Virus record (IMG/VR): IMGVR_UViG_3300017605_000956
Location: 14,479 to 78,478 of that record
DNA from: a virus
Direction: 5' to 3' (one strand)
Length of the DNA stretch: 64,000 nt
In this document: in pieces, positions 4,790 through 63,604 of the stretch
Layout of the letters: each line of letters starts with the position of its first letter
How positions within the stretch are numbered: the first letter of the stretch is position 1
Position numbers and translations under genes: made by a program
Notes under the pieces: model-generated
Database searches by the model: none
What the model saw: the letters and a program-made list of their open reading frames with translations, nothing else
Told to the model about the DNA's origin: nothing

Positions 4790-4847
4790 AGAGGGATACG
4801 TGTAGTGTCTCTCGTCTCTCGTAGAAAGGAATGGAGGAGGAACACGT

Positions 4848-5899: not shown

Positions 5900-6262
5900 G
5901 GAGGAGCGGAGCCAGGCGTCCGCATCGAAGGAAAGGACCAGGACGTCCGCCGGCGAAGAAGGACAAAAGAACCGCGTAAAAGAGCGCGGAGAGAAGAGAG
6001 AGGACAGAGAAAAGCGGACTGTTTCAGATCCGCTGGGGGAATCCGCTTTTCCAGTCCGCTTCTTTGTTCTTCCGCTTTGTGACGTTTTCCGTCGTTTGTG
6101 GACACTTTGCGTCAAACGTCAAAACGTCATCGCGATTTCTGGCGCGCAAATCGCGTTGCGCCCCATGGCGGGTCATTTGCAACAATGGCTCGCGTCGTTC
6201 GACAGTCTGCCCAGTATCACTGGGCGGTCGAACGAAGTCCGCGTATGGAATGGAGGTTCCAG

Positions 6263-6760
6263 ATGGCTCAGAAGAACATGGCGACCCCGGCGAAGCCCGC
6301 GTCTCCCGCTCCGGCCGCTCCCACCACCGAGAAGGCGGCGGACCCCAAGAAGCCGACGAAGATGTCCCGCGCCAACGTCATCGCGATGATCGCGGCGGGC
6401 GTCTTCCCGGCGGACACGCTGGAGAAGATGGAGAAGCAGGGCCTCGTGACCAGCGGCGATGGTGGCGGTGAGGACATCTTCGTCCAGCTCAAGGAAGGCG
6501 GCATCGACGAGAAGCTGATCGAGAAGTTCAAGGGCGTCCTGGCGGAGGTCAACGCCGCGCTCTGGAAGGACGCGAAGACGTACATCGGGAAGAACCCGAA
6601 GCACAAGTTCACCTTCCGCGACGACGCGAAGAAGGAGTACTCCTACGAAGCGCCCGCCGAGATCGAGCTGGCCGCGTGGGTGAAGCACTTCGACCCGAAG
6701 CAGAAGGAGAACCGCGAGGCCGCCGTGAAGGCCGCCAGCGCGACTCCCGCGAAGAGCTAA
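6263..6760 (+). CDS. isolated hypothetical protein between two long non-coding regions
   Basis: RBS GGAGG 6252-6256, ATG 6263, strongly biased codon usage, own terminator. Confidence 0.85.
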   Translation: MAQKNMATPAKPASPAPAAPTTEKAADPKKPTKMSRANVIAMIAAGVFPADTLEKMEKQGLVTSGDGGGEDIFVQLKEGGIDEKLIEKFKGVLAEVNAALWKDAKTYIGKNPKHKFTFRDDAKKEYSYEAPAEIELAAWVKHFDPKQKENREAAVKAASATPAKS

Positions 6761-6767
6761 CACCGCG

Positions 6768-6804
6768 AGCGGGGTGGCGGGCAACCGCCACCCCGCTTTT
6801 TTTT
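6768..6804 (+). terminator. Rho-independent terminator
   Basis: AGCGGGGTGGCGG-GCAA-CCGCCACCCCGCT plus a T-run. Confidence 0.9.
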
Positions 6805-6816
6805 ATCCGCACTTCC

Positions 6817-6989
6817 TGCACCTGCATGATCCAGAGCCATCCCCATGCACCTGCAGGACCCCATGCACCTGCTACGCTGCGGAAGAAAAGAACACCGCGC
6901 ACAACACGCGGAGAAAAGACCCTTTCCCACTTCGGACAAACGAACACCGCATCCCATCGCGCGCTGCACCTGCAAGGGATGCACCTGCA
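6817..6989. repeat. second cluster of TGCACCTGCA boxes
   Basis: Copies at 6817, 6846, 6864 (TGCACCTGCT), 6965, 6980. Confidence 0.85.
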
Positions 6990-7413
6990 AGAGATCCGGG
7001 GGGCCTGGCTGCGGATGTTTCGTCCGCTCGATCGACGGAGAAGAAAAGCCGCGCCTGGCAGCGCCGCGGCCGGCTCGCGGTTCTTCTTCCTCGTGGACTG
7101 GGGCGCGCAGCGGATCTCCGCGCGCGCTCGCCCAGGGGAGCTGGTTCTGCCTCGAGAATCGGCATCCGTGGCCTGGCACGGGGGGCGTTTCGCGAGGAAG
7201 AACAGCCCGACAAAGCGACTTTTCGCGCCATTTTGTGACACTTTTTGTATTTTGTATGACAGAACTTGTCATTTCTGGTCATTCTGGGTGGGGGTGGGAT
7301 CTACCCCCACTATAACCCCATGATTTCGCATGGGTTACGATTGGACGTTTTTGGACACGTTCGGCGGGTCATTTGCTGCAACCCCCATGGGTTCTATTTG
7401 GGGGGTGACGAAA

Positions 7414-8052
7414 ATGCGGTCGAGTGATGTCGAAGTGATGCGCGCCGCTGGCCTGAGCGAGGAGATCATCGCGAAGGCCTTGGCGCTGAGTCCGATCAAG
7501 ACGCGGGAGCCGAGAGTGCGGATTGACGTCTGCCCGGCGTGTGGGCAGAAGTCGATGCGCGGCGACTTCGTCTGTGGCGCGTGTAGCGCCCTCAAGGCGA
7601 AGTCCGACCGGCGCTTCTGGCAGCTCGTAGACAACCGCACCCGTGGCTTCGATGGTCGCCCCATCTACGAGAAGCCCGGCCCGCAGCAGCTCCCCGCGCA
7701 GACGCCGAAACCGGTGGCCCACAAGATCGTCGCGCTGCGGGAGACGACGCCCACGGTTGAGCGCGAGCCCGAGCGCCGGGAGTTCCTCGTCACCGTCGGC
7801 AAGCTGGGGCGCGTGGTCGTGGCGACCAGCGCGCCGCGCGCGGCAGCGGTGGCCCACGCGATCAACGAAGACCCCGAGACCGCCGGGCACGCGATCCTCG
7901 ACCTGGGCGTCACCGTGGAGCCCGAGACGGAGATCCCGGCGAAGGTGGGCAAGATGGGGGCGCCGGTCGCGGTCGAGCGCCGCTTCCGCGTCGCCGGCCC
8001 GGGAATGGAGATCGAGGTGGCGACGAATGCCGTGACCCAGAAGCGCGGATAG
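7414..8052 (+). CDS. Zn-finger (CPACG..CGAC) hypothetical protein
   Basis: ATG 7414 chosen because coding-like composition starts there. Confidence 0.65.
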   Translation: MRSSDVEVMRAAGLSEEIIAKALALSPIKTREPRVRIDVCPACGQKSMRGDFVCGACSALKAKSDRRFWQLVDNRTRGFDGRPIYEKPGPQQLPAQTPKPVAHKIVALRETTPTVEREPERREFLVTVGKLGRVVVATSAPRAAAVAHAINEDPETAGHAILDLGVTVEPETEIPAKVGKMGAPVAVERRFRVAGPGMEIEVATNAVTQKRG

Positions 8053-8167
8053 CGCGTCCACTCGCTCCCCACGTTCGACCCCCACAATAGATGGGGGCGA
8101 ATGGGTGGGGGGCGCGATGGGTGCGCGGGGGTTGTCCCCGCGACGTGAATGTGAGGAGGTCCCAGAT

Positions 8168-9229
8168 ATGTTGAGCGTGACAAGTCCACAGTATCAGCGG
8201 ATTCTGCGTACCGCTTTGGCGGCGCGGTACAAGTCGGGCAACGGAGCCTTCAACGGCTCGATCATGTTGCTGGGCGACACGGGCATCGGGAAGACCGATT
8301 CGACGGAGCACGCCTTCGACGGCGTTCTCTGCCCCCGCTGCCAGAAGCACGACGTGATCGTCCTGCCGTTCTATCTCTCGCAGATGGCGACGGAGGACAT
8401 CAAGGGCCTGTACATCTACTCCCCGCAGCACGACAAGGTGAAGCTCCACCCGAACCCCGACTTCCAGCTCGACGAAGAGTGCCCGCGCGTCTACTTCCTC
8501 GACGAGTTCACGACGGTCGAGCGTCCGATGCAGAAGTCCTCGCTCGAGTTCACCCTGAAGCATTCGATCGGCGGCACGAAGCTCCCGAAGGGGTCGATCG
8601 TGGTTCTGGGCGGCAACCGGGTCGAAGACGGCGCGGACGTCGAAGACATGGTGCGCCCCCAGCGGACGCGCATGACCTTCCTCCAGTTCGAGTTCTCGTC
8701 GGAGGCGTGGTTCGACTGGGCGCTGAAGAAGGGCATCCACCCCTACGTGATCTCCTTCCTCCACAACAAGGAGTCGATGATCTACAAGCCCGACGTCAAC
8801 GCGCAGCACGGCGAGCCGCTCCCCCGCACCTGGGAGAGGACGTCGGAGGTCCTGCACACGTTCGATCAGGCCGACTGGGAACCGCTCGTGAACGGCACGA
8901 TCGGGGACGGCGCGGCGACCGAGTTCATGGCGTGGACCGCGACGGCCGGAACGCTGATGCCGCTCGTCGACCGGATCATCGCTGGCGAGAACATCGCGGC
9001 GCCGGAGCTGTCCGCGCAGTTCTTCATCTCGGGCGTCCTGGTGGACCGCTTCGTGAAGAACGCGAAGCTGGCGGAGCGCCTGTGCCAGTACGCGATCTGG
9101 TCGGCTGACAAGAACCCGGAGGCCGCGGCGGTGATGGTGAAGGACTCCACTCGCGTCGCGAAAGACAAGATCACCGTGGCGCCCTCGTGGAAGAAGACCG
9201 TGGCCCGCCTGGCGGACTACGTGGTCTAG
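8168..9229 (+). CDS. MoxR-family AAA+ ATPase
   Basis: Walker A GDTGIGKT, Walker B YFLDE, GGNR sensor I, PRTW sensor II; RBS GAGGAGG; adjacent VWA gene. Confidence 0.9.
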   Translation: MLSVTSPQYQRILRTALAARYKSGNGAFNGSIMLLGDTGIGKTDSTEHAFDGVLCPRCQKHDVIVLPFYLSQMATEDIKGLYIYSPQHDKVKLHPNPDFQLDEECPRVYFLDEFTTVERPMQKSSLEFTLKHSIGGTKLPKGSIVVLGGNRVEDGADVEDMVRPQRTRMTFLQFEFSSEAWFDWALKKGIHPYVISFLHNKESMIYKPDVNAQHGEPLPRTWERTSEVLHTFDQADWEPLVNGTIGDGAATEFMAWTATAGTLMPLVDRIIAGENIAAPELSAQFFISGVLVDRFVKNAKLAERLCQYAIWSADKNPEAAAVMVKDSTRVAKDKITVAPSWKKTVARLADYVV

Positions 9230-9328
9230 GGACGGCGAGCGACCGGGCAGCCCCGCATCCGGGGCTGGTCGCTGGCGCGACCAGCCCCCCGTGTGTGAGC
9301 CATCCGAGTCTTGAGAAAGGAGAATGGC

Positions 9329-10540
9329 GTGGACGAGATGCAGAGAATGAAGCGAGCCCGAACGATGCTCCTTCTACACTACCCCTTCTTCGGCTACTTG
9401 GCGGCGAAGCTGAAGATCGTCGAATCGACGGCGTATCCGACGATGGCGACGGACGGGCGGCACATCTTCTTCAACCCGGACTTCACGAAGAAGCTGTCCG
9501 CGAACCAGACGCTCACGGGCATCGCCCACGAGGTCATGCACAACGCCTGCGAGCACTTCAGCCGCGCCGGCTCGCGGGACCCCGAGAAGTGGAAGAAGGC
9601 GGCGGACTACGCGATCAACCTGATCCTGAAGGACTCGGGCTTCGCGCCGATCGACATCCCCGGCGTCTTCTCGTGGCTGCTCGACGAACAGTGGCGCGGC
9701 ATGACGGCGGAGCGGATCTGCGACACGATGCCCAGCTCCCCGCCGTGCCCGAGCTGCGTGATCGTGAAGGTGAGCGGAGGCGGGCTGCCCGGGGCCGAGT
9801 CGAACGAGGATCCTGGGGAAGACCCCCAGAAGCAGGACCCGACGGCCCCCGACCACAGCCAGTCGAAAGATCCCATCCCCCCGCCGGTCAACTGGAAGCG
9901 GGCGCTCGTCGAGGCGGCCCAGTTCGCCAAGATGCGCGGCAAGCTCCCCGCCGGGATGGAGGAGATGGTCGACGGCATCATCCACCCGAAGGTCAACTGG
10001 AAGCAGATCATCCGGAACTCGTTCGCCGCGGCGAAGAAGACGGACTGGACGTACCGCCGACCCAACAGGCGCTACGCCCACACGGGGATCGCGATGCCGG
10101 TGCCGTTCGGGTACCGCTCGTCGGTCGAGTGGTGGGGCGACTCCTCCGGGTCGGTCGGAGCCCAGGAATGGAAGATGGGGCTCGGGATCTGCGTGGACAT
10201 CGCCAAGTCGATGCGGATTCCGATCAACGTCGGGGTCTGCGACGCGCAGGTCCACCTGTTCGAGGAGAACGTGAAGGACAACGACATCGCGAAGAGAGTG
10301 AAGTTCCTCGGTCGCGGCGGCACCGACTTCCGTCCGATCTTCGAGCACATCACGAAGGGCAAGCGCAAGCCCGACTGCGTGGTCGTCTGGACGGACGGCT
10401 ATGGGACGTTCCCGCAGAACTGGAAGCCGAAGTACCAGGTCATCTGGGCGATGCCGGAGAGCTCGGCCACGGTCAAAGTGCCGTTCGGCCGGAAGCTCCT
10501 CATCGACATGAAGAACCTGGTTGGGGCGGTGAGCGCATGA
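9329..10540 (+). CDS. VWA-domain protein with N-terminal HEXXH metallopeptidase-like domain (DUF2201-like)
   Basis: TMATDG, HEVMH, MIDAS DSSGS, GRGGTDF, WTDG. Confidence 0.9.
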   Translation: MDEMQRMKRARTMLLLHYPFFGYLAAKLKIVESTAYPTMATDGRHIFFNPDFTKKLSANQTLTGIAHEVMHNACEHFSRAGSRDPEKWKKAADYAINLILKDSGFAPIDIPGVFSWLLDEQWRGMTAERICDTMPSSPPCPSCVIVKVSGGGLPGAESNEDPGEDPQKQDPTAPDHSQSKDPIPPPVNWKRALVEAAQFAKMRGKLPAGMEEMVDGIIHPKVNWKQIIRNSFAAAKKTDWTYRRPNRRYAHTGIAMPVPFGYRSSVEWWGDSSGSVGAQEWKMGLGICVDIAKSMRIPINVGVCDAQVHLFEENVKDNDIAKRVKFLGRGGTDFRPIFEHITKGKRKPDCVVVWTDGYGTFPQNWKPKYQVIWAMPESSATVKVPFGRKLLIDMKNLVGAVSA

Positions 10541-11250
10541 TCCCGATGCGATGCTGTATCTGTGGGGAAGCCGAACGGCTCCCCGGCACCGTCGTCTGCA
10601 AGAACTGCAAGGCGGAGATCGTGCTGACCGAGGGCCAGGCGGGCCTCAAAGCCATCGAGGCGCTCCACGAGCTGCCGTCGCATACGACGGTCGCGATCGG
10701 GTCACAGCCAGGTGGCCCGATGCTCGCGAAGGCGATCAAGTGCGAGAGCTGCGGGAAGTCGGAGGTGTACAACCCTCAGAAGCGCAAGGCCTCGTACTTC
10801 TGCGATCTCTGCGGCAAGCAGCTCTGCACCGCGTGCGCCGCCTACTGCAACCACAAGGACTGGAACTATCAGGCGAAGATCGTCTGCAAGCTCTGCCGCG
10901 CCGAGACGTCGCTGACCGGGCAGCCCGTCGAAGAAGTCGAGGGCTCGCTCCCCGGCCAGGGCGACGAGGTGAAGCGTGTGCCGAAGCCCCACTGCGGTCG
11001 GGCGACGTGCGTGGAGGACCCGGAAATGACCGCGCACCCGTGCCCGACTCCAGGCTGCGACCACAAGCCCTTTTGCGAGTGCAAGTGTCCGAAGTGCCGC
11101 GAGGCTGTTGCGTCGGGATTCGTGGAGCCCATGTTCGGCAAGATGCCGCCCGACCCGGATCCGGAGCCCCCGAAGCCGCCGCCGGCACCGGACGATGAAG
11201 ACCTCGAAGACGAGATGGAAGCCCATCGTCGGGAGGCGGAGCAGGCATGA
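10537..11250 (+). CDS. multi-Zn-finger Cys-rich protein with two AExxLT motifs
   Basis: ATG overlaps the VWA gene stop; many CxxC; CKNCKAEIVLT, CKLCRAETSLT. Confidence 0.75.
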   Translation: MIPMRCCICGEAERLPGTVVCKNCKAEIVLTEGQAGLKAIEALHELPSHTTVAIGSQPGGPMLAKAIKCESCGKSEVYNPQKRKASYFCDLCGKQLCTACAAYCNHKDWNYQAKIVCKLCRAETSLTGQPVEEVEGSLPGQGDEVKRVPKPHCGRATCVEDPEMTAHPCPTPGCDHKPFCECKCPKCREAVASGFVEPMFGKMPPDPDPEPPKPPPAPDDEDLEDEMEAHRREAEQA

Positions 11251-11567
11251 TCCTCAGAACGAAGTGGGCCGCCGCTTACGAGGCGGTGAAAGAGCGGATC
11301 GAGAAGACCAGACCGAAGAACGTGGTCATCTTCGAGCTTGTCTGCAAGGGGCTCTATCCGCCCGACGTGCGGATGAAGGACGACGCCGACAAATGCTCGG
11401 CATGCCGCGTGTCGTGGTACAGCTTCGAGCCCGCTTTCGGACACGCGAACGGGCTCCCGCACTTCGTCGCCTGGTGCCTTGAGCACCCGACCGAAGTGCG
11501 GGAGCGGTTCCCGGAGGCGGTCATGGTGTTGACCGAGACGACGCTCATCAAGAAGGAGGCCGTATGA
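11247..11567 (+). CDS. hypothetical protein, partial paralog of 29958..30407
   Basis: HFVAWC..FPE motif; coupled starts. Confidence 0.7.
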   Translation: MILRTKWAAAYEAVKERIEKTRPKNVVIFELVCKGLYPPDVRMKDDADKCSACRVSWYSFEPAFGHANGLPHFVAWCLEHPTEVRERFPEAVMVLTETTLIKKEAV

Positions 11568-12307
11568 AGACGATCGCGATGATCATGCTTCCTCTGGCTC
11601 TTCAGGGATACGAAGAGTCGTCCCAGAAGCTCGCGGACGATCTGGCGAAAGCCGATACCGCCCCGGCCAAGGTCGCTGTGGCGGACGAGTTCGTGAAGCT
11701 CGCGAAGAAGTTCCCGAAGCAGCGCCAGGAGGCGATCGACGGGGCCTCAAGCGCGTACCGCGCAGCGTGGCCGGATCTGGACCCGGTGTGGAAGATGAAG
11801 ACGCGGGAGCGCCTGGCTCGGCTCTACGTCCCTCTCGCTCCGGTACCGGAGAAGAAGCTGCCTGTCGCTGGCTGGGGTGCGATCAGTGGCGCGAAGGCGG
11901 ACTCGTTGCGCGTCCACTCAGGATCCGCATCGCTCCACCTGAAGATCGCGAGGAAGGATGGTGGGCTGGCCGACATGGGCGGCACCGACTTCTTCGAGGT
12001 GAAGCCGGGCAAGGAGCTCGAGCTCTCCGCCTGGGTGCTCACCGATGGGACGGATGGGCTCGACGACAAGTTCGGGTTCGTCCTCTACGATGCTGCGGGC
12101 AAGTCGCTCGTGACGAAGGAACTCGTCGCGCCGAAGGACATTCCGGCCTGGACGCGGCTGTCTGATCGGTTCGAGGTTCCTGCCGGCGCCGTGAAGGCGA
12201 AGATCGGCATCCTCGTGTCGTCGAAGGGCGGCGATCTCTGGTGGGACGACTTCTCCGTCAAGATCGACGGCAAAGAGCAGCTCCGGAATGGGGGCTTCGA
12301 GAAATGA
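11564..12307 (+). CDS. exported protein with a carbohydrate-binding (CBM4/9, galactose-binding-like) domain
   Basis: Hydrophobic N-terminus; VHSGSASL, LSAWV, WTRL, WWDDF, LRNGGFE. Confidence 0.75.
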   Translation: MKTIAMIMLPLALQGYEESSQKLADDLAKADTAPAKVAVADEFVKLAKKFPKQRQEAIDGASSAYRAAWPDLDPVWKMKTRERLARLYVPLAPVPEKKLPVAGWGAISGAKADSLRVHSGSASLHLKIARKDGGLADMGGTDFFEVKPGKELELSAWVLTDGTDGLDDKFGFVLYDAAGKSLVTKELVAPKDIPAWTRLSDRFEVPAGAVKAKIGILVSSKGGDLWWDDFSVKIDGKEQLRNGGFEK

Positions 12308-12513
12308 GCAGGAAAGAAGACCCTAACCAGTACTGGTTCTGGCTCCAGCCCCTTCCCCCGTTCGAGGTACGGTACGCCCCGAACTGGGAGGGCCGGGGTC
12401 GCGGCTTCGTCGGCCCCTTCACGTTCCGCGCTTGCGCGGAACGTGAGAGGACCGATCGGCTTCTCGCTGGGGCGCCCCTGCGACTGATCGGGCCAAAGAG
12501 AAAGGAGCAATAG
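12304..12513 (+). CDS. hypothetical protein
   Basis: ATG overlaps the upstream stop. Confidence 0.5.
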   Translation: MSRKEDPNQYWFWLQPLPPFEVRYAPNWEGRGRGFVGPFTFRACAERERTDRLLAGAPLRLIGPKRKEQ

Positions 12514-12514
12514 C

Positions 12515-13183
12515 ATGGCCGCGAAACCGCTGGTCAAGCCGAAGCACAAGGTGCTGTCGGTGCCGATCGGGATGGTGAACTACAACATCCCGAGCCCCGA
12601 GGCGGCGAAGAAGCGCAACGCCCCCGAGGAGACCGTCAAGTTTCTCTCCCGCGCGACGTGGAGCATCCCCGGAGCGATGCGCCGCGTGTCGATCCCTTGG
12701 GATGGCAGCTTCTACATCTACGCGATGGTGAACGACGCGGAGATCAAGAAGATCCGGGACGAGTGGAACGAGGAGAAGGGCATCCGGTTCCACGTCGTCG
12801 AGGACTGGACCTCGAAGAACCCGGAGGAGACCGCCGAGATCGTTCGGGGCTGTATCGCCCGCAGCCTGGGCGACATCATCGGCTCGAAGGGCGAGGAGCC
12901 CGGGGACGAGCCCAGCGGCCTCCGTGGGTCGCTCGCGAAGCTCTCGAAGCGGTACGAGGAGCTGGACTCGACGGACGCCGATGGCCTCATCGTCGACCGC
13001 ATCCAGGACGCGAAGAAGAAGCTGGAGGACGCCATGGTCGTCGCCGCTTCCTTCGCTCTCACCGAGGACTACGAGGAGCTGCGGAAGACGGTTGTCACGA
13101 CGATCGAGGCGGAGCTGGAACTGGCCCGCATCGAAGTCGGCAAGGTGGCCCTCTCGCGCATGAAGGCAGCCGGGGTGATCTAG
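12515..13183 (+). CDS. helical hypothetical protein
   Basis: RBS AAGGAG; strong coding bias. Confidence 0.75.
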   Translation: MAAKPLVKPKHKVLSVPIGMVNYNIPSPEAAKKRNAPEETVKFLSRATWSIPGAMRRVSIPWDGSFYIYAMVNDAEIKKIRDEWNEEKGIRFHVVEDWTSKNPEETAEIVRGCIARSLGDIIGSKGEEPGDEPSGLRGSLAKLSKRYEELDSTDADGLIVDRIQDAKKKLEDAMVVAASFALTEDYEELRKTVVTTIEAELELARIEVGKVALSRMKAAGVI

Positions 13184-13213
13184 GAGAGCCGGGACCTCCT
13201 CTCCTGGGTACGG

Positions 13214-13242
13214 GTGGGGTGGGGGCGCAGCCCCCACCCCAC
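13214..13242. repeat. perfect hairpin with GCA triloop
   Basis: GTGGGGTGGGGGC-GCA-GCCCCCACCCCAC. Confidence 0.9.
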
Positions 13243-13287
13243 TTCGGGAGAGCGACGAAGGGGAAACGACCGAAAGATTTTTGGAGG

Positions 13288-13653
13288 ATGACCATGACCA
13301 CGATGCTCGGCACGTTTGGGGTAGCCGAAGAGGAGATCGGGAGATTCAACCGGACGCTCCCGCCTCAGACCAAGGTGAAGTACGACGCCCGGTGGGAGCT
13401 GGGGCTCGAAGTCGTGCGGTGGTTCCACTACCGCTACAACGTCGACCACACGTTCATCGGCCGGATCAACTCGGTGGAGGAGCTGCGGAAGAACATGGTC
13501 CCGCGGTACCAGGCCTACTTCATGTCGAGAGGCGTCCCGAAGAAGATGTTCCCGGCCCTCGACACGATCCTCATTGAGCCGCGGATCCAGGAGTTCTGCG
13601 AGATGTTCAAGGACGTCCTGGCGGAGATCGAACTTCTCCGGGAGGCACAATGA
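13288..13653 (+). CDS. hypothetical protein with C-terminal AExxL motif
   Basis: RBS GGAGG; ..FKDVLAEIELL. Confidence 0.7.
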   Translation: MTMTTMLGTFGVAEEEIGRFNRTLPPQTKVKYDARWELGLEVVRWFHYRYNVDHTFIGRINSVEELRKNMVPRYQAYFMSRGVPKKMFPALDTILIEPRIQEFCEMFKDVLAEIELLREAQ

Positions 13654-13955
13654 AGACGAAGCCGACGAAGTGGACCCTCGTGCAGCACTCGGGCTACGGC
13701 TACGCCGCGAAGCCCGCGTTCAAGCTCGGGGTCGAGACGCGACAGGTCGAAGGCGCCAAGGAGATCGAGCGCGTCCGCCGCGCCGGCGGGATGCTCTTCG
13801 ACTCCTACGGCGAGGCCGAGGACCAGGCGGACATCGAGAACTACCCGAAGGGGTACGAGGGGCTCGAGCCGCGAGTTCTCGGTACGTTCGCGGACGCGGA
13901 GGTGGATCAGCTTCGGGTGTACATCCCGAAGCTGGTATCCGCAGCATCGAGATGA
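13650..13955 (+). CDS. hypothetical protein
   Basis: Coupled start, RBS GGAGG. Confidence 0.7.
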   Translation: MKTKPTKWTLVQHSGYGYAAKPAFKLGVETRQVEGAKEIERVRRAGGMLFDSYGEAEDQADIENYPKGYEGLEPRVLGTFADAEVDQLRVYIPKLVSAASR

Positions 13956-14010
13956 AAAGAGCGTGCGGGGGCGCGGTCGTTTTGACCGCGCTTCCCGGCT
14001 CTCGAGGGTT

Positions 14011-14046
14011 TGCACGTGCTGGCCTTCCTGCGGCTTTGCACGTGCT
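14011..14046. promoter_or_regulatory. two TGCACGTGCT operator-like boxes upstream of the XRE regulator
   Basis: Copies at 14011 and 14037. Confidence 0.55.
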
Positions 14047-14205
14047 GACGAAAGATTGGCGGACGAAAAATGCTCCGCGTTTGGACGACGCGGCTGTATG
14101 GCTGGCCGGGGCCTTTTCCGGCAGGGAAAAGAGTGAGGCGAGAGGTGGACGATGGTTCTTCGAGGTTCAGCGTAATCGCCCCTCACGGGGCGGAAGGAGT
14201 GATGA

Positions 14206-14469
14206 ATGTCGCAGGTGAAGATCAACGGGTCGAAGCTGAGAGAGGTTCGGATGGGGAAACGCATGACGACCAAGGAGCTCGCGGAGCGGTCGGGTGTGTC
14301 CCCCCGGACGATCGACCGCATCGAATCCGGGGCGCTGAAGGAGGGCGTGAGGGAAGGAACCCTCTTCGCCATCACGAAGGCGCTCGAGGTCGAGCTGGAC
14401 GTTCTGATCGAGTCCGCGCCGATTCCCGCGGAAGTCGGAGAGAAGAGTGAAGACAAGAAAACCGCGTAA
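14206..14469 (+). CDS. XRE-family HTH transcriptional regulator
   Basis: LREVR..MTTKELAERSGVSPRTIDRIESG..ITKALEV. Confidence 0.9.
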   Translation: MSQVKINGSKLREVRMGKRMTTKELAERSGVSPRTIDRIESGALKEGVREGTLFAITKALEVELDVLIESAPIPAEVGEKSEDKKTA

Positions 14470-14971
14470 CGCCGCTCTTGAATTCGCCAAGGGCTTCACG
14501 GTCCTCGTGGCGCGGGAGGCGCTGCGGCAGGGCCGCAAGAGAGTCCTGAACCCGGCGAAGTTCGAGAAGTGGGCGCGCAGCGCGATCCGGTCGGGCGGTG
14601 GGGACCCCGACCGGATCGGGGAGGCCGTCGGAAGGCGGCTTCACTGGATGGTATTCCCTCAGAAGGCGAAGTGGCAGCAGGACGTGGAGTACTGCATCCG
14701 TCGCGGGCGTTCGTTCGCCCGCCGGCATAAGGTGCTGATTGCCGAGCAGGTGCTGACGGGAGACGCGGAGAGGACCCAACTTGAGATGGCAGCGGAAGAG
14801 ATGGTCCGCATCCTTGGGCCGAAGAAGGTCTTGGACCTTCTCGGCAAAGGGAAAGAGAGTAGGGCGTGCGTAAGTCGAAGTCGGAAGCGTTCGAGGATCT
14901 CGCGGCGCCGCTTGGCGAGTTCGTGTTCGAGCTGCGGGCGTCGTGGGGGACGAAAGCGATCGGCACGGTGA
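14447..14971 (+). CDS. hypothetical protein with AExxLT motif
   Basis: ..FARRHKVLIAEQVLT; 3' end overlaps the next gene. Confidence 0.55.
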   Translation: MKTRKPRNAALEFAKGFTVLVAREALRQGRKRVLNPAKFEKWARSAIRSGGGDPDRIGEAVGRRLHWMVFPQKAKWQQDVEYCIRRGRSFARRHKVLIAEQVLTGDAERTQLEMAAEEMVRILGPKKVLDLLGKGKESRACVSRSRKRSRISRRRLASSCSSCGRRGGRKRSAR

Positions 14972-45159: not shown

Positions 45160-45921
45160 ATGTCGAATCCCATCTCTCGCCGCCGCCAGTCCCAGCTCGA
45201 CGCGCTGAACGATGCGCCGCCCGGCCGCGGCGAGTCGATCCAGCGCCCCATGTCCGCCGGCGCCGACGGGATTCGCAAGCTCGAGGTCCCGAAGATGGTG
45301 CAGTACGTCCAGACCTTCAACTCGGATCCGAAGGTTGTCACCCTCGCGCAGCGCGTCATCCAGCTCTGCGAGGCGAAGGACAAGATGTGCGAGATGAACA
45401 CCCTGTTCCAGTGGACGAAGAACCACTTCCGCTACGTCAACGATCCGATCGACAAGGAAGCGATCAAGACCGCGCCGCGCATGATTGGCGAGATCATGAC
45501 GCCGCCCGAGGTGATCGAGCACATCCTGGGACCCGAGCTCATCACGCAGATGAATGGCTTCGGCCTGGGTCACGGCTCGCTGCTCGAGGGCGACCCGCGC
45601 AAGCGTCTCGTCCTCTGCATGGGCTGCTTCGATCAGCGCCTCTCCGGCCCGGTCCACTCGAAGGGCTCCGGTGACTGCGACGACGGCGCGACGTTCCTGG
45701 CGACGCTGCTCGCGGCTGTCGGCATCACGCCGCGCTTCCGCTTTGGCGGCCAGGAAGACGATTCCATGTCCGACGGCTGCAATTACCACCACGTCTGGGT
45801 GCAGGGCCAGGACGACAAGGGCGACTGGCACGACATGGACGTCACCGAGAAACGCTCGAAGCTCGGCTGGTTCTACGAAGGCTTCTCCTGCACCGGTGTT
45901 GCGGCCATCTTCGCGGAGTAG
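45160..45921 (+). CDS. transglutaminase-like cysteine protease
   Basis: FRYVNDP, GDCDD (Cys), HHVW (His), MDVT (Asp) triad. Confidence 0.88.
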   Translation: MSNPISRRRQSQLDALNDAPPGRGESIQRPMSAGADGIRKLEVPKMVQYVQTFNSDPKVVTLAQRVIQLCEAKDKMCEMNTLFQWTKNHFRYVNDPIDKEAIKTAPRMIGEIMTPPEVIEHILGPELITQMNGFGLGHGSLLEGDPRKRLVLCMGCFDQRLSGPVHSKGSGDCDDGATFLATLLAAVGITPRFRFGGQEDDSMSDGCNYHHVWVQGQDDKGDWHDMDVTEKRSKLGWFYEGFSCTGVAAIFAE

Positions 45922-46186: not shown

Positions 46187-46780
46187 ATGAGCTCGAAGTG
46201 CCCGCCGGTCACCGTCAACCTCGACGAAGTCGTCGACACCGTCAAGGCGAAGATCCTGAGCGAGCACCCCGAGCTGACCTCCAAGAAGGTCGACGGGAAC
46301 GTCCACAGCGTCGGCATCCGCGGCCTCGGCGAGATCCGTCTCGTCGAGCCCACCGTCGATCCGAGCCAGTTCGTGATCGGCTTCGTGTCGATCCCGAGCG
46401 TCGTCAACATGGCGACGAAGCTGATGCAGGTCGGCGTCATCTTCCCGAAGGTCGACCTCGCGCTCTCGCGCGGCATCTTCGCGGGCGTCACGCTCGCGGG
46501 CACCCTCATCTCCGGCGGCAAGTCCTTTCTCCTCGGCGCCTTCCTCGGCCAGGTCCCCTCGACGATCGACGCGCTCGCGGACATCGCGGTCGCGGCCATC
46601 ACGAAGGCCAAGGCAGGCTCGGCGGCGGTCCAGGGCATCGACCTGGGCGGCCTGGGCGCGACGCAGGAGGAGGAGCTGCTGAAGCTCCGCGCCGACCTGA
46701 TGCAGCTCCAGGGCATCGGGCGCGACGGCGGCGAGCAGATGTCGGGCCACCGCGGCGGCTCGGTCGTGTTCCACCGGTAA
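46187..46780 (+). CDS. putative virion membrane/core protein with hydrophobic-Gly motifs
   Basis: RBS AAGGAG; hydrophobic core; IRGLG, VQGIDLGGLG, LQGIG, MSG. Confidence 0.7.
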   Translation: MSSKCPPVTVNLDEVVDTVKAKILSEHPELTSKKVDGNVHSVGIRGLGEIRLVEPTVDPSQFVIGFVSIPSVVNMATKLMQVGVIFPKVDLALSRGIFAGVTLAGTLISGGKSFLLGAFLGQVPSTIDALADIAVAAITKAKAGSAAVQGIDLGGLGATQEEELLKLRADLMQLQGIGRDGGEQMSGHRGGSVVFHR

Positions 46781-48716: not shown

Positions 48717-49463
48717 ATGGCATCGAAAGCCAAGTCCGGAATGTCCGCCGTCCGGATGTTCACCGAGAAGATCGTTGAACCTCCGAACACCTTCGTCGAG
48801 GGCGACACGTCGTTCTCGACGTCCGTCCGCGACGGCAAGGGTCATGCCGCGCTTCACGCCGGCGCGCTGAACGACACGACCGGAACGCTGGAGATCCTGC
48901 AGGCTTGGCGTGCGGCTGGACCGTTCGCCGTGCTCTTCTCGAAAGCGACCACGCTCGATTCCGAGAGCGGCCTCTATACCGTGGACATGACGGTTCCAGT
49001 GGTTCGCCGGTTCGTGAAGGTTCGCTTCACGCCCGCCGCGGATCCGCCCGGCCTGGGCGTGAACTTCGAGCTGGGCGCCTACTTCCTGCCGCGAGCCGAC
49101 TCGACGCCCTTCGAGAGCGAGTCGGGCGGTGCGGTGGTGGTCGAGGTCGCCGGCAGCCCCGGCAGCGTGATCGACGCAGGGGCCGATACCACCGTCAACG
49201 TGGGCACGACCGTTCCCCTCCCGGCCATCCCCGCCGGCACGCGCCGGATGACGGTCCAGAACACCGGCCCAGCCGGGACCTGGATCCGCGTCCGGAAGGT
49301 GGGCGGCGCAGCCGGTTCCGGAAGACTCCTCCCCCGCCTGGGCGAGTACACCTACGGCGGCGCCGATGGCGCCATCGCGGCGCTCGAGGTGGAAGACGTT
49401 TCCCTCGCCGTGGGAGGTTCGGCCGTTGCGACGACGGTCCTCCTCGAATTCGAGGAGGACTAA
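48717..49463 (+). CDS. two-domain beta-rich virion protein
   Basis: RFVKVRFT; RRMTVQNTG patterns. Confidence 0.55.
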   Translation: MASKAKSGMSAVRMFTEKIVEPPNTFVEGDTSFSTSVRDGKGHAALHAGALNDTTGTLEILQAWRAAGPFAVLFSKATTLDSESGLYTVDMTVPVVRRFVKVRFTPAADPPGLGVNFELGAYFLPRADSTPFESESGGAVVVEVAGSPGSVIDAGADTTVNVGTTVPLPAIPAGTRRMTVQNTGPAGTWIRVRKVGGAAGSGRLLPRLGEYTYGGADGAIAALEVEDVSLAVGGSAVATTVLLEFEED

Positions 49464-49466: not shown

Positions 49467-50171
49467 ATGGGCGCTCCGACCTTCCTCGATCTCGCAGCCG
49501 CGATCGACCGAGTCCTCCACCGGAACATCAACTTCCCGTTCCGCTCGATCTCGTCGTCGCCCGACTCGATCATCGACACGGACCTGTACCTCAAGATCGA
49601 CGCGAGCGGCGGGAACCGCGTGCTCACGCTGCCCTCGGCGGCCACGGTCGGCGCCGGCATGGGCTTCAAGCTGATGCGGGTCGACAGCACGCTCGCCAAC
49701 ACCGTCACGATCGGGACGACGGGTGGCGAGACGATCAACGGCGCGTCTTCCGTCGGGATCACGAAGCAGTACGGCGCGCTCGAGATCGTCTCCGACGGCG
49801 CGAACTGGCTGCTCTACGCGAGCCCCGAGGCCTTCGCGCTCAAGAGCGACGTCCTCTGGACGTTCCCCAACACCGTCGCGAACGACCAGAACGCGGGCCT
49901 GTACACGTACTATGCCGCGCGGGCGACCTCGTTCGTCGCGCTCGACATCTACATGAACTCGGCCCCCACCGGCCAGGACATCATCGTGGACTGGGCGGTG
50001 AACGGCGTCATCAATCCGGCCTACCGGCTCACGCTGCCGGTCTCGACGCAGTACCTCGAGCTCGTGGTGGCTGTCTCTCTGGCCGTCGGAGACACGCTCA
50101 AGCCGTCGATCGTGCAGGTCGGTACGATCCAGCCCGGTCAGACGATGGCACTTCGTGCGAGGGGGGTCTAG
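49467..50171 (+). CDS. fibre/spike-like virion protein
   Basis: IDASGGNRVLTLPSA, TINGA, SDGANW fibre motif; APTG..LAVGD C-terminal domain. Confidence 0.7.
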   Translation: MGAPTFLDLAAAIDRVLHRNINFPFRSISSSPDSIIDTDLYLKIDASGGNRVLTLPSAATVGAGMGFKLMRVDSTLANTVTIGTTGGETINGASSVGITKQYGALEIVSDGANWLLYASPEAFALKSDVLWTFPNTVANDQNAGLYTYYAARATSFVALDIYMNSAPTGQDIIVDWAVNGVINPAYRLTLPVSTQYLELVVAVSLAVGDTLKPSIVQVGTIQPGQTMALRARGV

Positions 50172-59593: not shown

Positions 59594-59616
59594 TTTCATA
59601 TCTCTGGAGGAATGGA

Positions 59617-60174
59617 ATGGAGAGCATCCACAAGGACACCACGGTCAAAATGCAGCCCCGCAACGAGCTCGCCTCGGAGCAGGCGAAGTGGGATCGCGAC
59701 GTCTCGGCCATCCTGAAGAAGGTCCAGTTCCGGGGCACCGTCTACATGATGCTCGGCTACATCGTGTACGGCCTGGGCTCGGTGGCGATCATGTGGTTCA
59801 TGAGGAGCCAGGCCGCCCTTGCGACGGCGATGGTGATGTTCTTCTTCCAGCTCTGCGTGATCTACTTCGGGTGCAAGGTCATTTTCCCCAACATCGCCGG
59901 GGCCTTCCAGGTCGGACTCCTCGCCAACCGAAACTCGATGCCCGCCTTCATCAAGCTGGCCGAGGTCGCCGGCGACCAGGACAACTCCCCCCTGATCAAG
60001 TCGATCAAACAGGCGGGACTTGACATCAAGGCGACCGGGGATACAATCCGACAAGAGATCGCGGGGTTGAGGGAGGCGATGGTGAAGCCCATCGCCCCGC
60101 CGTTCAAGAAGATCGTGCCGCCCCCGATCGCGGAGACGAAGAGTGCCGAACCCGCCCAGACCTCCGGCGCCTAA
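59617..60174 (+). CDS. two-TM membrane protein
   Basis: RBS GGAGG; two hydrophobic helices. Confidence 0.7.
   Translation: MESIHKDTTVKMQPRNELASEQAKWDRDVSAILKKVQFRGTVYMMLGYIVYGLGSVAIMWFMRSQAALATAMVMFFFQLCVIYFGCKVIFPNIAGAFQVGLLANRNSMPAFIKLAEVAGDQDNSPLIKSIKQAGLDIKATGDTIRQEIAGLREAMVKPIAPPFKKIVPPPIAETKSAEPAQTSGA
60020..60047 (+). promoter_or_regulatory. intragenic sigma70-type promoter upstream of the repeat protein
   Basis: TTGACA-16nt-TACAAT. Confidence 0.55.
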
Positions 60175-60288
60175 AACGACGGCTCCCGTCCAGCCGTCGG
60201 TGAATATCAACATCGTCCAGCGCGGCAAGCCCGCCAAGACCGTTTCGGTCAAGCCGGGGTGCTGCCTGAGTAAGAAGGGAGCCACCAA

Positions 60289-61830
60289 ATGAGCCGGAAC
60301 GCCCACTTCTCGCTGCTCGGCAACATGGGCACGTCCTATGCGCCCGACGCGGAAGGCTCCGCCGAAGGAGACATCCTCGGCGTCTCGGCTTACGACCTCG
60401 CCGGTCTGCGCGAGGACGATGCTTCGGTGCGTCTCGGCGTCAGCGCCTACGACCTGGCCGGTCTCCGCGAGGACGACGCGGCCGTTCGCATGGGCGTCTC
60501 GGCGTATGACCTCGCCGGGCTCCGGGAGGACGACGCCGAGGTTCGGATGGGCGTCTCCGCCTACGATCTCGCGGGCCTCCGCGAGGACGATGCGGCGGTG
60601 CGCCTGGGGCTCACCGACTTCGACGGCGCCAGCGGCAGCGCCGAGGGCTCGGCGGCCGGTCACCGGGTCGCCCAGATGGGCCTGCTCGTCTCCGACGGCC
60701 GCATGGGCGGGATGGTCGAGGACCACTACGACATCCGCATGGGCGTGTCGGCCTACGACCTCGCGGGGCTGCGCGAAGACGACGCGGCGGTCCGCATGGG
60801 CGTGAGCGCCTACGATCTCGCCGGCCTGCGGGAAGATGACGCGGCCGTCCGAATGGGCGACTCGCGCTACGGCGCCCGCTACGGCACCCAGTACCGCCTC
60901 CTGCGGTACAAGGGCGACTACGGCACCGAGTACACCCGGCTGCCGGGCCGCCGCCTGGCGAAGGGCAAGAAGCGTCGCATGGCCGACGTCGACTCCATGA
61001 GCGCCGAGGCCATGGCGATCGAGCAGTACGGCCAGATCGCGGGCGTGACCAACACGTTCCGGATGGGCTACATCCTGCGCGGCCTGCGCGAGGATGACGC
61101 CTCCGTCCGGATGGGCGTGTCCGCCTATGACCTGGCGGGCCTCCGGGAAGACGACGCCGCCGTGCGTATGGGCACGGCCTACGCCGACGATGCCACGGGC
61201 AGCGCCGAAGACCCCTCGGGCCGCGCGGGCCTGGGGGTTTCGGCCTACGACCTGGGCCGCCGGCGCGCGTACCCCTACAGCGTCGACGGCGCGGAAGTGA
61301 ACCCGCCCGCGATGCTGGCGGCCGATGGCTTCCACGAGCGGTTCCCCGTCCGCCTCCGCGGGCTGGGCCGGATCAACCTGGGCAACATCGCCTGGACCGA
61401 GGCCATGCCCCGGCTCCAGACCGCGATCGCGCAGGAAGCGAAGCTCTACGCCCGCGTCCTGCGGCTCAACGACACCTCGAAGGCCGCGATCATGACCCAG
61501 GTCGCGAACCTGAACGCGCTCGACAAGGGCCAGCTCTTCAACGGGCAGCTCACCGTCTACCTCAACGGCGGCGAAGCCCACTGGCTCGCTCACGAGGGGA
61601 CGCAGCGCCGGCTGTTCGCCACGGAGAAGATCATCCCCACGGTCGACGCGATGCTCACGGCCTACGAGCGGGGCGCCACCCCGGACGAGGCCCTGAAGGC
61701 GGCTCTCGCCAACGTCGACAAGCGGATCGACGACCTGAAGAGCGGTTTCATGCAGTACGCCCTGCCCATCGGCGGCGGAGTCGTCGCGGCGGGCATTATC
61801 ACCGCTCTGGTCCTGAGCGCCTCCAAGTAG
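60289..61830 (+). CDS. 19-aa repeat, polyprotein-like membrane-anchored protein
   Basis: 7 full VSAYDLAGLREDDAxVR(M/L)G units plus partials; C-terminal TM. Confidence 0.85.
   Translation: MSRNAHFSLLGNMGTSYAPDAEGSAEGDILGVSAYDLAGLREDDASVRLGVSAYDLAGLREDDAAVRMGVSAYDLAGLREDDAEVRMGVSAYDLAGLREDDAAVRLGLTDFDGASGSAEGSAAGHRVAQMGLLVSDGRMGGMVEDHYDIRMGVSAYDLAGLREDDAAVRMGVSAYDLAGLREDDAAVRMGDSRYGARYGTQYRLLRYKGDYGTEYTRLPGRRLAKGKKRRMADVDSMSAEAMAIEQYGQIAGVTNTFRMGYILRGLREDDASVRMGVSAYDLAGLREDDAAVRMGTAYADDATGSAEDPSGRAGLGVSAYDLGRRRAYPYSVDGAEVNPPAMLAADGFHERFPVRLRGLGRINLGNIAWTEAMPRLQTAIAQEAKLYARVLRLNDTSKAAIMTQVANLNALDKGQLFNGQLTVYLNGGEAHWLAHEGTQRRLFATEKIIPTVDAMLTAYERGATPDEALKAALANVDKRIDDLKSGFMQYALPIGGGVVAAGIITALVLSASK
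60382..61257 (+). repeat. 57-bp coding tandem repeats
   Basis: 4 copies 60382-60609, 2 copies 60745-60858, 1 copy 61117-61173, partials at 61081 and 61237. Confidence 0.9.
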
Positions 61831-62166
61831 GTGAAAATCGCCGTCTTTGCGCTGGCGGTGTACGGCGCCGCCATCTCGGTCGCGCTCCTCAAGGTAGGGG
61901 CGCCGGTCCGGTGGGTTCTCTCCCGCCTGGACTACATGATCTTTCGCAACGAGCAGGGCTCCTGGCTGAAGACGCTCTCCGAGTGTCCCGCCTGCCTGTC
62001 CTTCTGGATCTCGTTCCTGCTGTCGTACTGGCTGATGCCGATCGGGACGGCCGGACCAACGCTGCTGGAGGCGCTCCTCACGCGGGGGATCTGGTCGGTC
62101 GCGATGGTGGGCTTCACCTGGATCGTCCACGTCACGATGTCCAAGCTCGGGCAGTACGAACTCTAA
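61831..62166 (+). CDS. DUF1360-like membrane protein
   Basis: LSECPACLSFW motif with TM segments. Confidence 0.7.
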   Translation: MKIAVFALAVYGAAISVALLKVGAPVRWVLSRLDYMIFRNEQGSWLKTLSECPACLSFWISFLLSYWLMPIGTAGPTLLEALLTRGIWSVAMVGFTWIVHVTMSKLGQYEL

Positions 62167-62179
62167 GGAGGCACCTCCC

Positions 62180-62464
62180 ATGTGGTTTCTCGTGTACCCC
62201 CTGGTCGCCGCCGCCGGCGGCGCGCTCTGGGAGCTGGTCCTCCGCCCCGCGCCCAAGGACGAGGTCGTGCAGTACGACGCCGACGCCAGCCTGGTCGACG
62301 CCAACGAGGTCGCTCTCAAGAACAAGGGCATCGACTGCGACATCTTCACCAACGGGGCCTACCACTGGATCATGGTGAAGAAGGCCGATCGCGCGAACGC
62401 GGTCGCGGTCATCAGCGACTCCACGCGGCAGTGGGTCGCCACCAAGAACCGCATCCCCACATAG
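62180..62464 (+). CDS. N-terminally anchored small protein
   Basis: RBS AAGGAGG; hydrophobic N-terminus. Confidence 0.65.
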   Translation: MWFLVYPLVAAAGGALWELVLRPAPKDEVVQYDADASLVDANEVALKNKGIDCDIFTNGAYHWIMVKKADRANAVAVISDSTRQWVATKNRIPT

Positions 62465-62890: not shown

Positions 62891-62956
62891 GCCCCCCAGG
62901 GCGGCTTACTACAACGGGTAGGCCGGGGCCACCTGAGGATGGAGGAAGCTGGCAGG

Positions 62957-63604
62957 ATGGCGGACATCTTCAACGTCCACCGCGGCGGCTACCGCGCAGC
63001 GAAGGGAGAGTCGAAGTCCTCGCAGGACAAGGTCCTCCAGCGCACCGAGCTGCAGGCCCTTCTCGACGCTCCCAAGAGCGATCACCGTCGGTACGGCTAC
63101 GACGCCTACGACCTCTTCGCGATCGCCGGCAACTTCGGGCTGCGGTGCAGCGAAGTTCTCAGCCTCGAGTTCGACGACTTCTCTTCGATCCGCTCGGGGT
63201 ACTTCCGCGTCTCGACGCTCAAGCGCCGGAAGAACCTCCAGGACCGCGTCTACACCGGAGACGCTGGCCGCAAGCTGCTCGAGAGCACGGTGCTCCCCTC
63301 GCGCCGGCGCGTCGTCGGACCGAAGGGCTCGATCCTCTTCCCGTTCGGCGCGCGCACCGCGCGCTACCTCTTCGCCTACTACGCCGAGAAGGCCGGGATC
63401 TCGCCCAACGTTTCGTTCCACGCGCTCCGCCACACCGCGGCTCGAATGCTGCTGATGTCGATGCGGAAGAGCGAGCTCGCCAACGAGGCGATGAACATCG
63501 TGACCTGCTTCCTCCGCCACAAGCCGTCCTCCACGCAGATTTACACGGAGCCCTCCGCCGAGGAGATGATCCAGGCGATGAATCTGCGTGGAGTCGTGCA
63601 GTGA
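62957..63604 (+). CDS. short tyrosine recombinase (catalytic domain only)
   Basis: GLRCSE (R), TLKRR (K), HALRH (HxxR), LRH, TQIY (Y); RBS GGAGG. Confidence 0.9.
   Translation: MADIFNVHRGGYRAAKGESKSSQDKVLQRTELQALLDAPKSDHRRYGYDAYDLFAIAGNFGLRCSEVLSLEFDDFSSIRSGYFRVSTLKRRKNLQDRVYTGDAGRKLLESTVLPSRRRVVGPKGSILFPFGARTARYLFAYYAEKAGISPNVSFHALRHTAARMLLMSMRKSELANEAMNIVTCFLRHKPSSTQIYTEPSAEEMIQAMNLRGVVQ

Follow-up and report, generated by a model that had tools for sequence, protein, structure and literature searches.

What would a virus do with a protein that carries one short acidic peptide seven times over and ends in a membrane anchor? The question is raised by a gene near the 3' end of a 64,000-nucleotide stretch of viral DNA (referred to below as the window), which comprises bases 14479–78478 of the 78,478-bp IMG/VR virus record IMGVR_UViG_3300017605_000956. 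The original prediction, made from the letters of this DNA, described the gene product as a polyprotein-like precursor of 19-amino acid (aa) peptides delimited by R(M/L)G. We tentatively favour another answer: that this product, called here the repeat protein, serves in morphogenesis as a tail-anchored arm for multivalent docking or scaffolding, which is probably severed at a junction motif. The gene and the parts of the protein (residue numbers in parentheses; TM, transmembrane) are as follows.

60289..61830 including the stop, + strand: repeat-protein gene, 513 aa (open reading frame (ORF); guanine-cytosine content (GC) at third codon positions, GC3, 0.92; ~55 homologues; conserved synteny)
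60274..60281, +: Shine-Dalgarno-like GAAGGGAG, 7 nt before the ATG (from a reading of the sequence)
60289..60309, +: N-terminal heptapeptide MSRNAHF, family consensus MSRNGHF (alignments A1 and A2; S2 and N4 invariant in A1)
60331..60369, +: spacer module 1, TSYAPDAEGSAEG (aa 15–27), family motif [TA]AYxPxAEGSAEGD
60382..60609, +: array 1, four 19-aa units (aa 32–107), each VSAYDLA + GLREDDAxVR[ML]G
60610..60648, +: spacer module 2, LTDFDGASGSAEG (aa 108–120)
60745..60858, +: array 2, two 19-aa units (aa 153–190)
60859..60984, +: basic Tyr/Arg-rich insert (aa 191–232), isoelectric point 10.8, net charge +10
61069..61116, +: partial unit YILRGLREDDASVRMG (aa 261–276), family motif RMGxILRGLREDDA
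61117..61173, +: seventh full 19-aa unit (aa 277–295)
61174..61212, +: spacer module 3, TAYADDATGSAED (aa 296–308)
61237..61257, +: lone half-unit VSAYDLG (aa 317–323)
61330..61350, +: FHERFPV motif (alignment A3; F348, H349, R351, F352 and P353 each at least 90% conserved)
61354..61374, +: junction motif LRGLGRI (aa 356–362), an instance of [ILM]xGLGx[IV] (G358 and G360 invariant in A1, an alignment of 19 sequences); putative signal for cleavage or sorting
61381..61749, +: C-terminal helical bundle (aa 365–487; AlphaFold2, predicted local distance difference test (pLDDT) ~90)
61759..61824, +: C-terminal TM tail anchor (aa 491–512), followed by one residue (hydropathy; AlphaFold2 helix 497–512; conserved in the family)

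Conserved peptides and drifting codons in the repeat copies

The full unit follows the pattern VSAYDLAGLREDDA[ASE]VR[ML]G and starts at aa 32, 51, 70, 89, 153, 172 and 277. All seven of the near-identical units that had been claimed were found, together with two partial ones, and the three spacers, the basic Tyr/Arg insert and the C-terminal domain with its TM anchor lie where the first reading of the DNA had put them. At the nucleotide level, TRF reported a 57-nt period at 60377–60603 and at 60734–60859.

Third codon positions accounted for 216 of the 258 nucleotide differences in pairwise comparisons of the seven units, and 209 codon differences were synonymous as against 21 that were non-synonymous (mean non-synonymous distance, dN, 0.059; mean synonymous distance, dS, 1.37); the serine codons alternate between TCN and AGC. 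Four units encode an identical 19-mer, and among these 8–10 of the 19 codons differed (mean 9.5), compared with 9.66 expected for independent draws from the genome's own codon usage. For the seven core codons, compared in the window and at nine related loci, synonymous differences numbered 3.0–5.0 per pair versus 3.5 expected, and the only non-synonymous core change was D/E at one position in three loci. Because the codon differences match independent draws, the copies have no detectable common DNA history and only the peptide is common to them; recent slippage, assembly artefact and concerted evolution are therefore excluded. Synonymous sites are saturated between relatives too, so that unit orthology between the window and locus L004, which carries an 83%-identical homologue, is uninformative (orthologous units 10–14 nt apart, non-orthologous units 11–17 nt). 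These data indicate that each copy is under purifying selection at the peptide level, and they bear out the original prediction both in its description of mostly synonymous variation and in its appeal to protein-level selection without recent slippage.

Relatives of the repeat protein were sought among 5.8 billion proteins with a word index and, exhaustively, among 1.84 billion cluster representatives with HMMER. About 55 family members were obtained, all metagenomic and several on contigs of 64–80 kb; the cluster representatives gave 30 matches, a few of them spurious. None was present in IMG/VR, cultured phage records, plasmids or 185,579 species-representative genomes. For the repeat protein itself, Pfam returned no family, PHROGs only two weak partial matches to families of unknown function without a significant stretch, and NCBIfam 18.8 bits against a cut-off of 115; the best match in a PDB profile search was a designed helix bundle (E 0.003). 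The repeat family is undescribed, and it is restricted to an uncultured lineage with unrecognisable virion genes.

Comparison within this family showed the 19-mer to be made up of two modules that occur independently, (G)VSAYD and [LM]xGLREDDAx[VLI]R[LM], of which the window protein contains about eight copies each. Homologues contain runs of VSAYD only (e.g. GVSAYDRMGVSAYDRMGVSAYDL) and runs of GLREDDA only, with a 12-aa period (e.g. LRGLREDDADVRLRGLREDDADVRL); linkers between VSAYD and GLREDDA are 2–4 residues long, and distant members have 5–10 GLREDDA units and zero VSAYD. Among 412 GLREDDA units, G-L-R-E is invariant, the first D is D/E in 402, the second D is kept in 410 and the A in 402, and the flanking hydrophobic positions are L, M, I or V in at least 94%; Gly follows R[LM] in only 63%. 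The number of copies per protein is 5–10 for GLREDDA (mostly 7–9) and 7–8 for VSAYD in the nearer relatives, and their order and grouping vary. The check on copy number in homologues that had been proposed for this gene thus had a divided outcome: the count is stable, in favour of constraint on each copy, and the 19-mer as the unit was not upheld. As a conserved product bounded by R(M/L)G the 19-mer fails as well, because the modules are separate, their spacing is variable and the bounding Gly is inconstant.

Several other motifs are conserved in single copy, namely MSRNGHF, [TA]AYxPxAEGSAEGD, DVDSxxAEAxxIEQ, RMGxILRGLREDDA, GRRRAF and GAExxPPxxLxAxGFHERFPV, and in distant homologues a Lys/Ala-rich segment of ~90 aa replaces the basic insert. 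The dipeptides [LMI]G occur 20 times in the repeat protein against 10.4 expected (z 3.3). Their use as punctuation across the late proteins was considered and rejected, since the other late proteins had z ≤1.4, except for one 89-aa ORF (three sites, z 2.8), and the total for the proteome was below expectation. Resemblances to MIM1/ESCRT, SSB-tail, RTX-calcium and curli-like amyloid motifs were dropped, as the spacing or the composition did not fit.

Predicted architecture, junction motif and candidate peptidase

An AlphaFold2 model based on a 51-sequence alignment gave residues 1–363 of the repeat protein a pLDDT of 32–44 and no secondary structure, with the exception of two short helices at 239–265; the repeat arrays themselves (pLDDT 34–44) contained no strands. 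Residues 365–487 formed a confident helical bundle, with a helix at 497–512 after it. The ESM Atlas model (pLDDT 0.41) was uninformative for the C-terminal part. Structural neighbours of the bundle in VIA-align were generic helical bundles only (Z ≤8.1, under the level that is meaningful for helical proteins), and a fold search of BFVD with the whole model found nothing below E 0.007. A known solenoid fold of the repeats, which the original prediction had named as an outcome that would speak against it, was not seen, since the model is without secondary structure over the arrays; the regular stacked secondary structure of folded tandem repeats, such as RTX or the AIDA-type 19-aa beta-helix, was likewise absent from the prediction.

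The most hydrophobic 19-residue segment of the protein, and the only strongly hydrophobic one, is aa 491–509 of 513, and the N terminus, MSRNAHFSLLGNMG, is polar. Because the repeat protein has no N-terminal signal or TM segment and its sole TM helix ends one residue before the C terminus, it is predicted to be tail-anchored, with the arm on the cytoplasmic side; it has the single TM helix at the extreme C terminus that characterises tail-anchored membrane proteins. If the membrane lies inside a capsid, the arm would be located between membrane and shell, and if it is a budded envelope, within the particle.

The motif LRGLGRI lies exactly between the disordered arm and the bundle. Its frequency was assessed by counts over ~100 called proteins and 300 shuffles. 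GLGxI occurred nine times versus 0.7 expected (maximum 3 in the 300 shuffles), and eight of the nine had I, L or M two residues upstream. Outside the repeat protein, [ILM]xGLG was found 12 times (1.9 expected, maximum 7) and [ILM]xGLGx[IV] seven times (0.2 expected, maximum 3). The form with arginine, [ILM]xGLR, was not enriched elsewhere in the proteome (3 observed, 1.4 expected). The mapped instances are listed below.

Window, 46316–46330
Window, 61354–61374 (the repeat protein)
L013 (G000 1–14600), ORF 786–1469
L013, ORF 12995–13312
L013, ORF 13323–13817
G000, 14356–14628

Four instances fall within TM helices, where they may serve helix packing. In the others x is a charged residue (IRGLG, IKGLG, IHGLG, IEGLG and LKGLG), and these are found in small membrane proteins, 10–25 residues from a hydrophobic segment; three of them stand at residues 3–19 of their proteins, and these N-terminal positions favour a role in cleavage over one in packing. 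The motif is conserved also in the unrelated w46145 family, whose gene adjoins that of the peptidase described below: it reads [VI]G[IV]xGLGxI there, with G60, G62 and I64 invariant, and a second element, h-x-G-[LM]-G-A, is conserved across the hydrophobic core (G169 and G171 invariant). In the repeat family, the junction site was present in 12 of the 14 members checked (one with two extra matches), and two gave no match. From its sequence, [ILM]xGLGx[IV] may be a cleavage or sorting signal, and its conservation suggests that the arm is detached, or the protein sorted, by machinery that is shared with the small membrane proteins. The GLREDDA units open with the same [LM]xGL, followed by Arg in all 412.

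A similar site is known from adenovirus, whose protease, adenain, recognises a type-2 pattern (M/I/L)XGX|G, for example IVGL|G in pVI (PMC4246237). LRGL|G at aa 356–360 fits this pattern (the alternative adenain site is (M/I/L)XGG|X), and the [LM]xGL-R of the repeats misfits it at P1'. The resemblance is that of a five-residue motif and carries no evidence of homology. The original prediction had tied the repeats to a protease; such a link is plausible by way of the one conserved junction site and the [LM]xGL that it shares with the units, and R(M/L)G as the delimiter falls away. The candidate enzyme is encoded at the head of the late block, of which its gene is the first.

45160..45921, +: transglutaminase-like Cys-His-Asp peptidase, w45160 (PF01841 Transglut_core, 30.2 bits versus a gathering cut-off of 23)

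About 90 homologues of w45160 were found, in which C173 and H211 are invariant and D225/D227 at least 90% conserved. Its model (pLDDT 83.5) matched in Foldseek the putative Cys protease 3isr (E 4e-5), PNGase, transglutaminases, LapG (probability 0.99) and PeiP, a pseudomurein endoisopeptidase. It was the only Cys peptidase found among the ORFs that were scanned, and it is transglutaminase-like and not adenain-like (peptidase C5); judged by these matches, it may be a protease, an isopeptidase or a hydrolase of the cell wall. We infer that w45160 is a candidate for the enzyme acting at [ILM]xGLG sites. A complex prediction for the peptidase with residues 32–88 of the repeat protein scored 0.00 without controls and is evidence neither way.

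Genomic setting of the repeat gene

The repeat gene has a GC of 0.72/0.48/0.92 by codon position, which is typical of the genes of this genome. An antisense ORF of 918 aa spans the whole of it (59596–62352, − strand); its codon-position GC of 0.86/0.48/0.68 is non-genic, and it was set aside as a high-GC artefact. Downstream, the next gene follows without a gap.

61831..62166, +: 111-aa multi-TM protein, w61831; its GTG start abuts the TAG stop of the repeat gene

This arrangement suggests translational coupling from the repeat gene into w61831. The w61831 protein has three hydrophobic segments and a CPAC motif, and it is syntenic with the repeat gene in every relative that has flanking sequence. 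Just 5' of the repeat gene, at 60200–60277, is a 25-codon ORF with a GTG start (VNINIVQRGKPAKTVSVKPGCCLSK), whose product is basic and has a Cys pair. Eleven Joint Genome Institute loci served as the sample for synteny, and the order w56120/w56544/w59054/w59353/repeat protein/w61831/w62180/integrase was conserved, the same in L003, L006, L008 and L012. The repeat gene thus belongs to a conserved late block of membrane proteins. An 'AGLRE' in the upstream neighbour w59353 was dropped as a shared motif, being unconserved in the homologues of w59353.

The record has direct terminal repeats, with 141 bp exactly repeated at both ends. In the relatives, the integrase is directly followed by homologues of the first genes of the record (GT4-like and GT9-like glycosyltransferases (GT), then an M48 peptidase), from which a circular or circularly permuted genome follows. 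The integrase-glycosyltransferase-M48 run, established by synteny, is located as follows.

Window 62939–63604, then L013 9–5810
L003 13158–17967
L006 8608–12989
L012 11903–17027

The element as a whole is a conserved lineage. The glycosyltransferase block beside the integrase resembles a lysogenic-conversion module, and the most conserved glycosyltransferase has ~50% identity across loci.

The virus genome has a GC of ~64%, and nearly all of its genes are on the + strand. Recognisable functions include phage-type genes for replication and modification (ParB, C5 and N6 DNA methylases, a DUF3987 primase-helicase, a PD-(D/E)XK nuclease and AAA_24), a MoxR-like ATPase with a DUF2201/VWA protein, a small tyrosine integrase, an M48 peptidase and several glycosyltransferases (GT4-like, GT9-like and GT2-like); the metallopeptidases are M48 and DUF2201. 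Pfam and PHROGs scans covered ~50 proteins, including all ORFs of at least 400 aa. None of these matched a terminase, a portal, an HK97 or jelly-roll capsid protein, a tail tape measure or a packaging ATPase of the FtsK/A32 type, and there was no Pfam or PHROG match to a gp21-like protease, divergent forms of the HK97 capsid or the protease being possible. Walker-A motifs in plausible genes numbered only three in window 1–64000 plus L013 (the MoxR-like ATPase, AAA_24 and a 77-aa ORF). Two genes of the late part offer leads: w48717 (48717–49463) resembles XepA-type two-beta-sandwich phage proteins in language-model features (score 0.91, a lead only), and w49467 (49467–50171) has a weak PHROG match to a baseplate protein (E 3e-6). 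Parts resembling an adsorption apparatus may be present though no head genes were recognised.

Soil and rhizosphere metagenomes from several studies contain near-identical DNA, at low depth, and no RNA run was listed as holding it. Contigs from soil and rhizosphere DNA cover the repeat gene in short, low-depth pieces, and one run matches 60549–60851 in all but one letter; in this short, low-depth cover, no copy-number joints of the repeat array were seen. The sole lead to a host is a homologue of the w45160 peptidase, with 61% identity, on a 3.7-kb contig of a metagenome-assembled genome (MAG) that NCBI labels Vicinamibacteria (Acidobacteriota). It agrees with the soil and rhizosphere source and with the GC of 64%, and is only a lead.

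Readings of the arm and their consequences

In the reading that we favour, one TM helix and a small helical bundle would hold an acidic, disordered arm of ~360 residues at the face of a membrane that looks into the cytoplasm or into the virion. This arm would be a string of short linear motifs, among them about eight copies each of [LM]xGLREDDAx[VLI]R[LM] and (G)VSAYD besides a few that are single, and in the course of morphogenesis it would gather many copies of one or two partners at the membrane, these being either structural proteins of the virus or a host factor. It would then be severed from its anchor at the single [ILM]xGL|GxI junction motif, which is common to several small membrane proteins, possibly by the virus's transglutaminase-like Cys peptidase. 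Near-invariant short motifs in a disordered chain look like recognition sites, and a function by valency would explain why the copies are kept invariant while their codons drift, why their number is stable though their order varies, and why shuffling of the two motifs is tolerated.

Several points weigh against this proposal. We infer the binding, the identity of the partner, the cleavage and the enzyme alike from sequence. The disorder of the arm is a prediction that is also compatible with folding on binding or with ions. The virion type is not recognised, so 'morphogenesis' is argued from gene position alone. In addition, the junction motif could act in sorting or packing instead of as a cut site, and w45160 could equally be a cell-wall or other hydrolase, as Foldseek also matched it to PNGase, true transglutaminases and the pseudomurein endoisopeptidase.

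Could the protein be, after all, a polyprotein that is cut at each unit boundary into about eight free acidic 19-aa peptides, or into two shorter peptides? The products could be bioactive, or could serve as internal peptides in neutralising basic core proteins, like those derived from gp22 of T4. The very strong conservation of the peptide in each copy suits such a precursor, as do the excess of [LMI]G in the repeat protein, the presence in every unit of [LM]xGL, with which the proteome-wide [ILM]xGL|G begins, and the L-R-E of each unit, which presumably agrees with the (L/I)xE rule for prohead proteases of the T4 type. Release of peptides is nevertheless unlikely, given that there is no fixed 19-mer (modules arrayed independently, linkers of variable length, 12-aa runs, inconstant Gly), that a TM anchor and a helical bundle are unexpected in a pure precursor, that the late proteins are otherwise without [LMI]G enrichment and that scans detected no gp21-like protease; nor were enzymes of the type that mature ribosomally synthesised and post-translationally modified peptides (RiPPs), an ABC exporter or a leader peptide found nearby. 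The multicore precursors of RiPPs, such as cyanobactin PatE and fungal UstA, do share with the repeat protein a tandem conserved short peptide and recurring boundary residues, but here there are 513 aa with a bundle and a TM anchor, independent motifs, no leader and a place in a virus late block. A multicore RiPP-like precursor, one of the original suggestions, is not supported: the neighbours, searched against Pfam, PHROGs and NCBIfam, consist of an integrase and of TM proteins that match no family, with no maturation enzyme among them, and there is no fixed core, the periods being 12, 19 or more aa. It is quite unlikely, too, that the arm is a pseudo-substrate, its eight [LM]xGL-REDDA units binding the viral peptidase uncut and so concentrating or silencing it at the membrane until assembly. 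This would account for the [LM]xGL common to the repeats and the dispersed junction motif, for the Arg that always follows GL where Gly is needed (in adenovirus IVGL|G the P1' Gly is obligatory, as no side chain fits; PMC4246237) and for the lack of [ILM]xGLR enrichment elsewhere. However, this reading presupposes that the peptidase recognises [ILM]xGLG, the enzyme is transglutaminase-like and not adenain-like, and the equally conserved VSAYD and AEGSAEG modules would be left unexplained.

A target in the host is a rather unlikely alternative, in which membrane-tethered motifs would sequester a conserved protein of the host cytoplasm, serving takeover or anti-defence and not the building of virions. 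That a 7-residue motif stays invariant among homologues with only ~30% overall identity does suit a slowly evolving target, and the gene stands at the end of the late block, beside small membrane proteins, the integrase and the conversion-like glycosyltransferases; on the other hand, it is co-oriented with, and apparently translationally coupled into, that block of membrane proteins, its motifs matched no known bacterial short-motif class, and the only host lead is the peptidase homologue from the Vicinamibacteria MAG. Modification of the units is improbable. The Ser and Tyr of VSAYD or the Arg, Asp and Glu of GLREDDA might be acceptors for viral glycosyltransferases or transglutaminase-type chemistry; a GT9-type heptosyltransferase modifies the 19-aa repeats of AIDA-I, and the several glycosyltransferases of this genome are contiguous with the block across the circular junction in relatives. 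But the arm is predicted to lie in the cytoplasm, Gln and Lys, which cross-linking by a transglutaminase would need, are absent from the units, and glycosyltransferases adjacent to an integrase are more simply explained as genes for conversion of the host surface. Very improbable is a folded domain in which the units stack as a solenoid or fibre (spike, fibre or cement protein): the regular 19-aa period and the conserved Gly and hydrophobic positions would fit one, whereas the arrays are predicted without secondary structure at a pLDDT far below that of the C-terminal domain (with the low ESM Atlas value beside it), five of the 12 core positions are charged, and the order and spacing of the modules vary freely in homologues.

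The tethered, severable docking arm that we favour shares single traits with several known systems. Adenovirus with adenain is like it in having hydrophobic-x-G-L-G at domain boundaries and near the N termini of several proteins and a Cys-His-Asp peptidase, a resemblance of sequence only; the peptidase here is transglutaminase-like instead of family C5, the host is presumably bacterial, and adenovirus has no tandem-motif substrate. The prohead core or scaffold of T4 (gp22, the internal proteins and gp21) likewise involves an acidic assembly protein, here possibly removed or fragmented at many similar short sites, but T4 core proteins have neither a membrane anchor nor near-identical tandem motifs, and the gp21-like protease, HK97 capsid, portal and terminase of that system are those undetected among the proteins scanned here. 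LapA/LapG offers a parallel, LapG being of the same structural superfamily as w45160 (Foldseek): in each system one specific cut would detach the long portion that carries the repeats from its anchor. LapG works in the periplasm, depends on calcium and cleaves at a di-alanine motif; unlike the arm, the LapA repeats are folded cell-surface domains, and there is no sequence relationship. FG-nucleoporins and the scaffold region of RNase E are also disordered chains with many short recognition motifs and a function that comes from valency; here, however, near-invariance extends from the 'stickers' to the spacers as well, and the chain is tail-anchored and viral.

A bolder version, which we hold to be unlikely, is that this virus group follows a new logic of maturation and assembly: [ILM]xGL|GxI would mark virion membrane proteins for a transglutaminase-fold peptidase, and the arm would be a 'ruler or scaffold' that is cut away, each of its approximately eight GLREDDA and eight VSAYD sites docking one structural subunit or one peptidase before cutting. 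If true, this would be convergent with adenovirus maturation, in a bacterial virus without known capsid or packaging hallmark genes. The docking arm that we favour would be among the clearest cases in prokaryotic viruses of a disordered chain that functions through arrayed short linear motifs. Each ingredient has precedents, be it a viral assembly protein with protease sites, a tail-anchored protein or a multivalent array of motifs; what would surprise a specialist is the full synonymous randomisation of identical repeats, the grammar of two motifs and the common [ILM]xGLGxI signal. GLREDDA, VSAYD and [ILM]xGLGxI are handles that can be synthesised as peptides, and with them the partners of the arm and the specificity of a protease could be captured, making the architecture of this ~78-kb soil virus lineage experimentally approachable.

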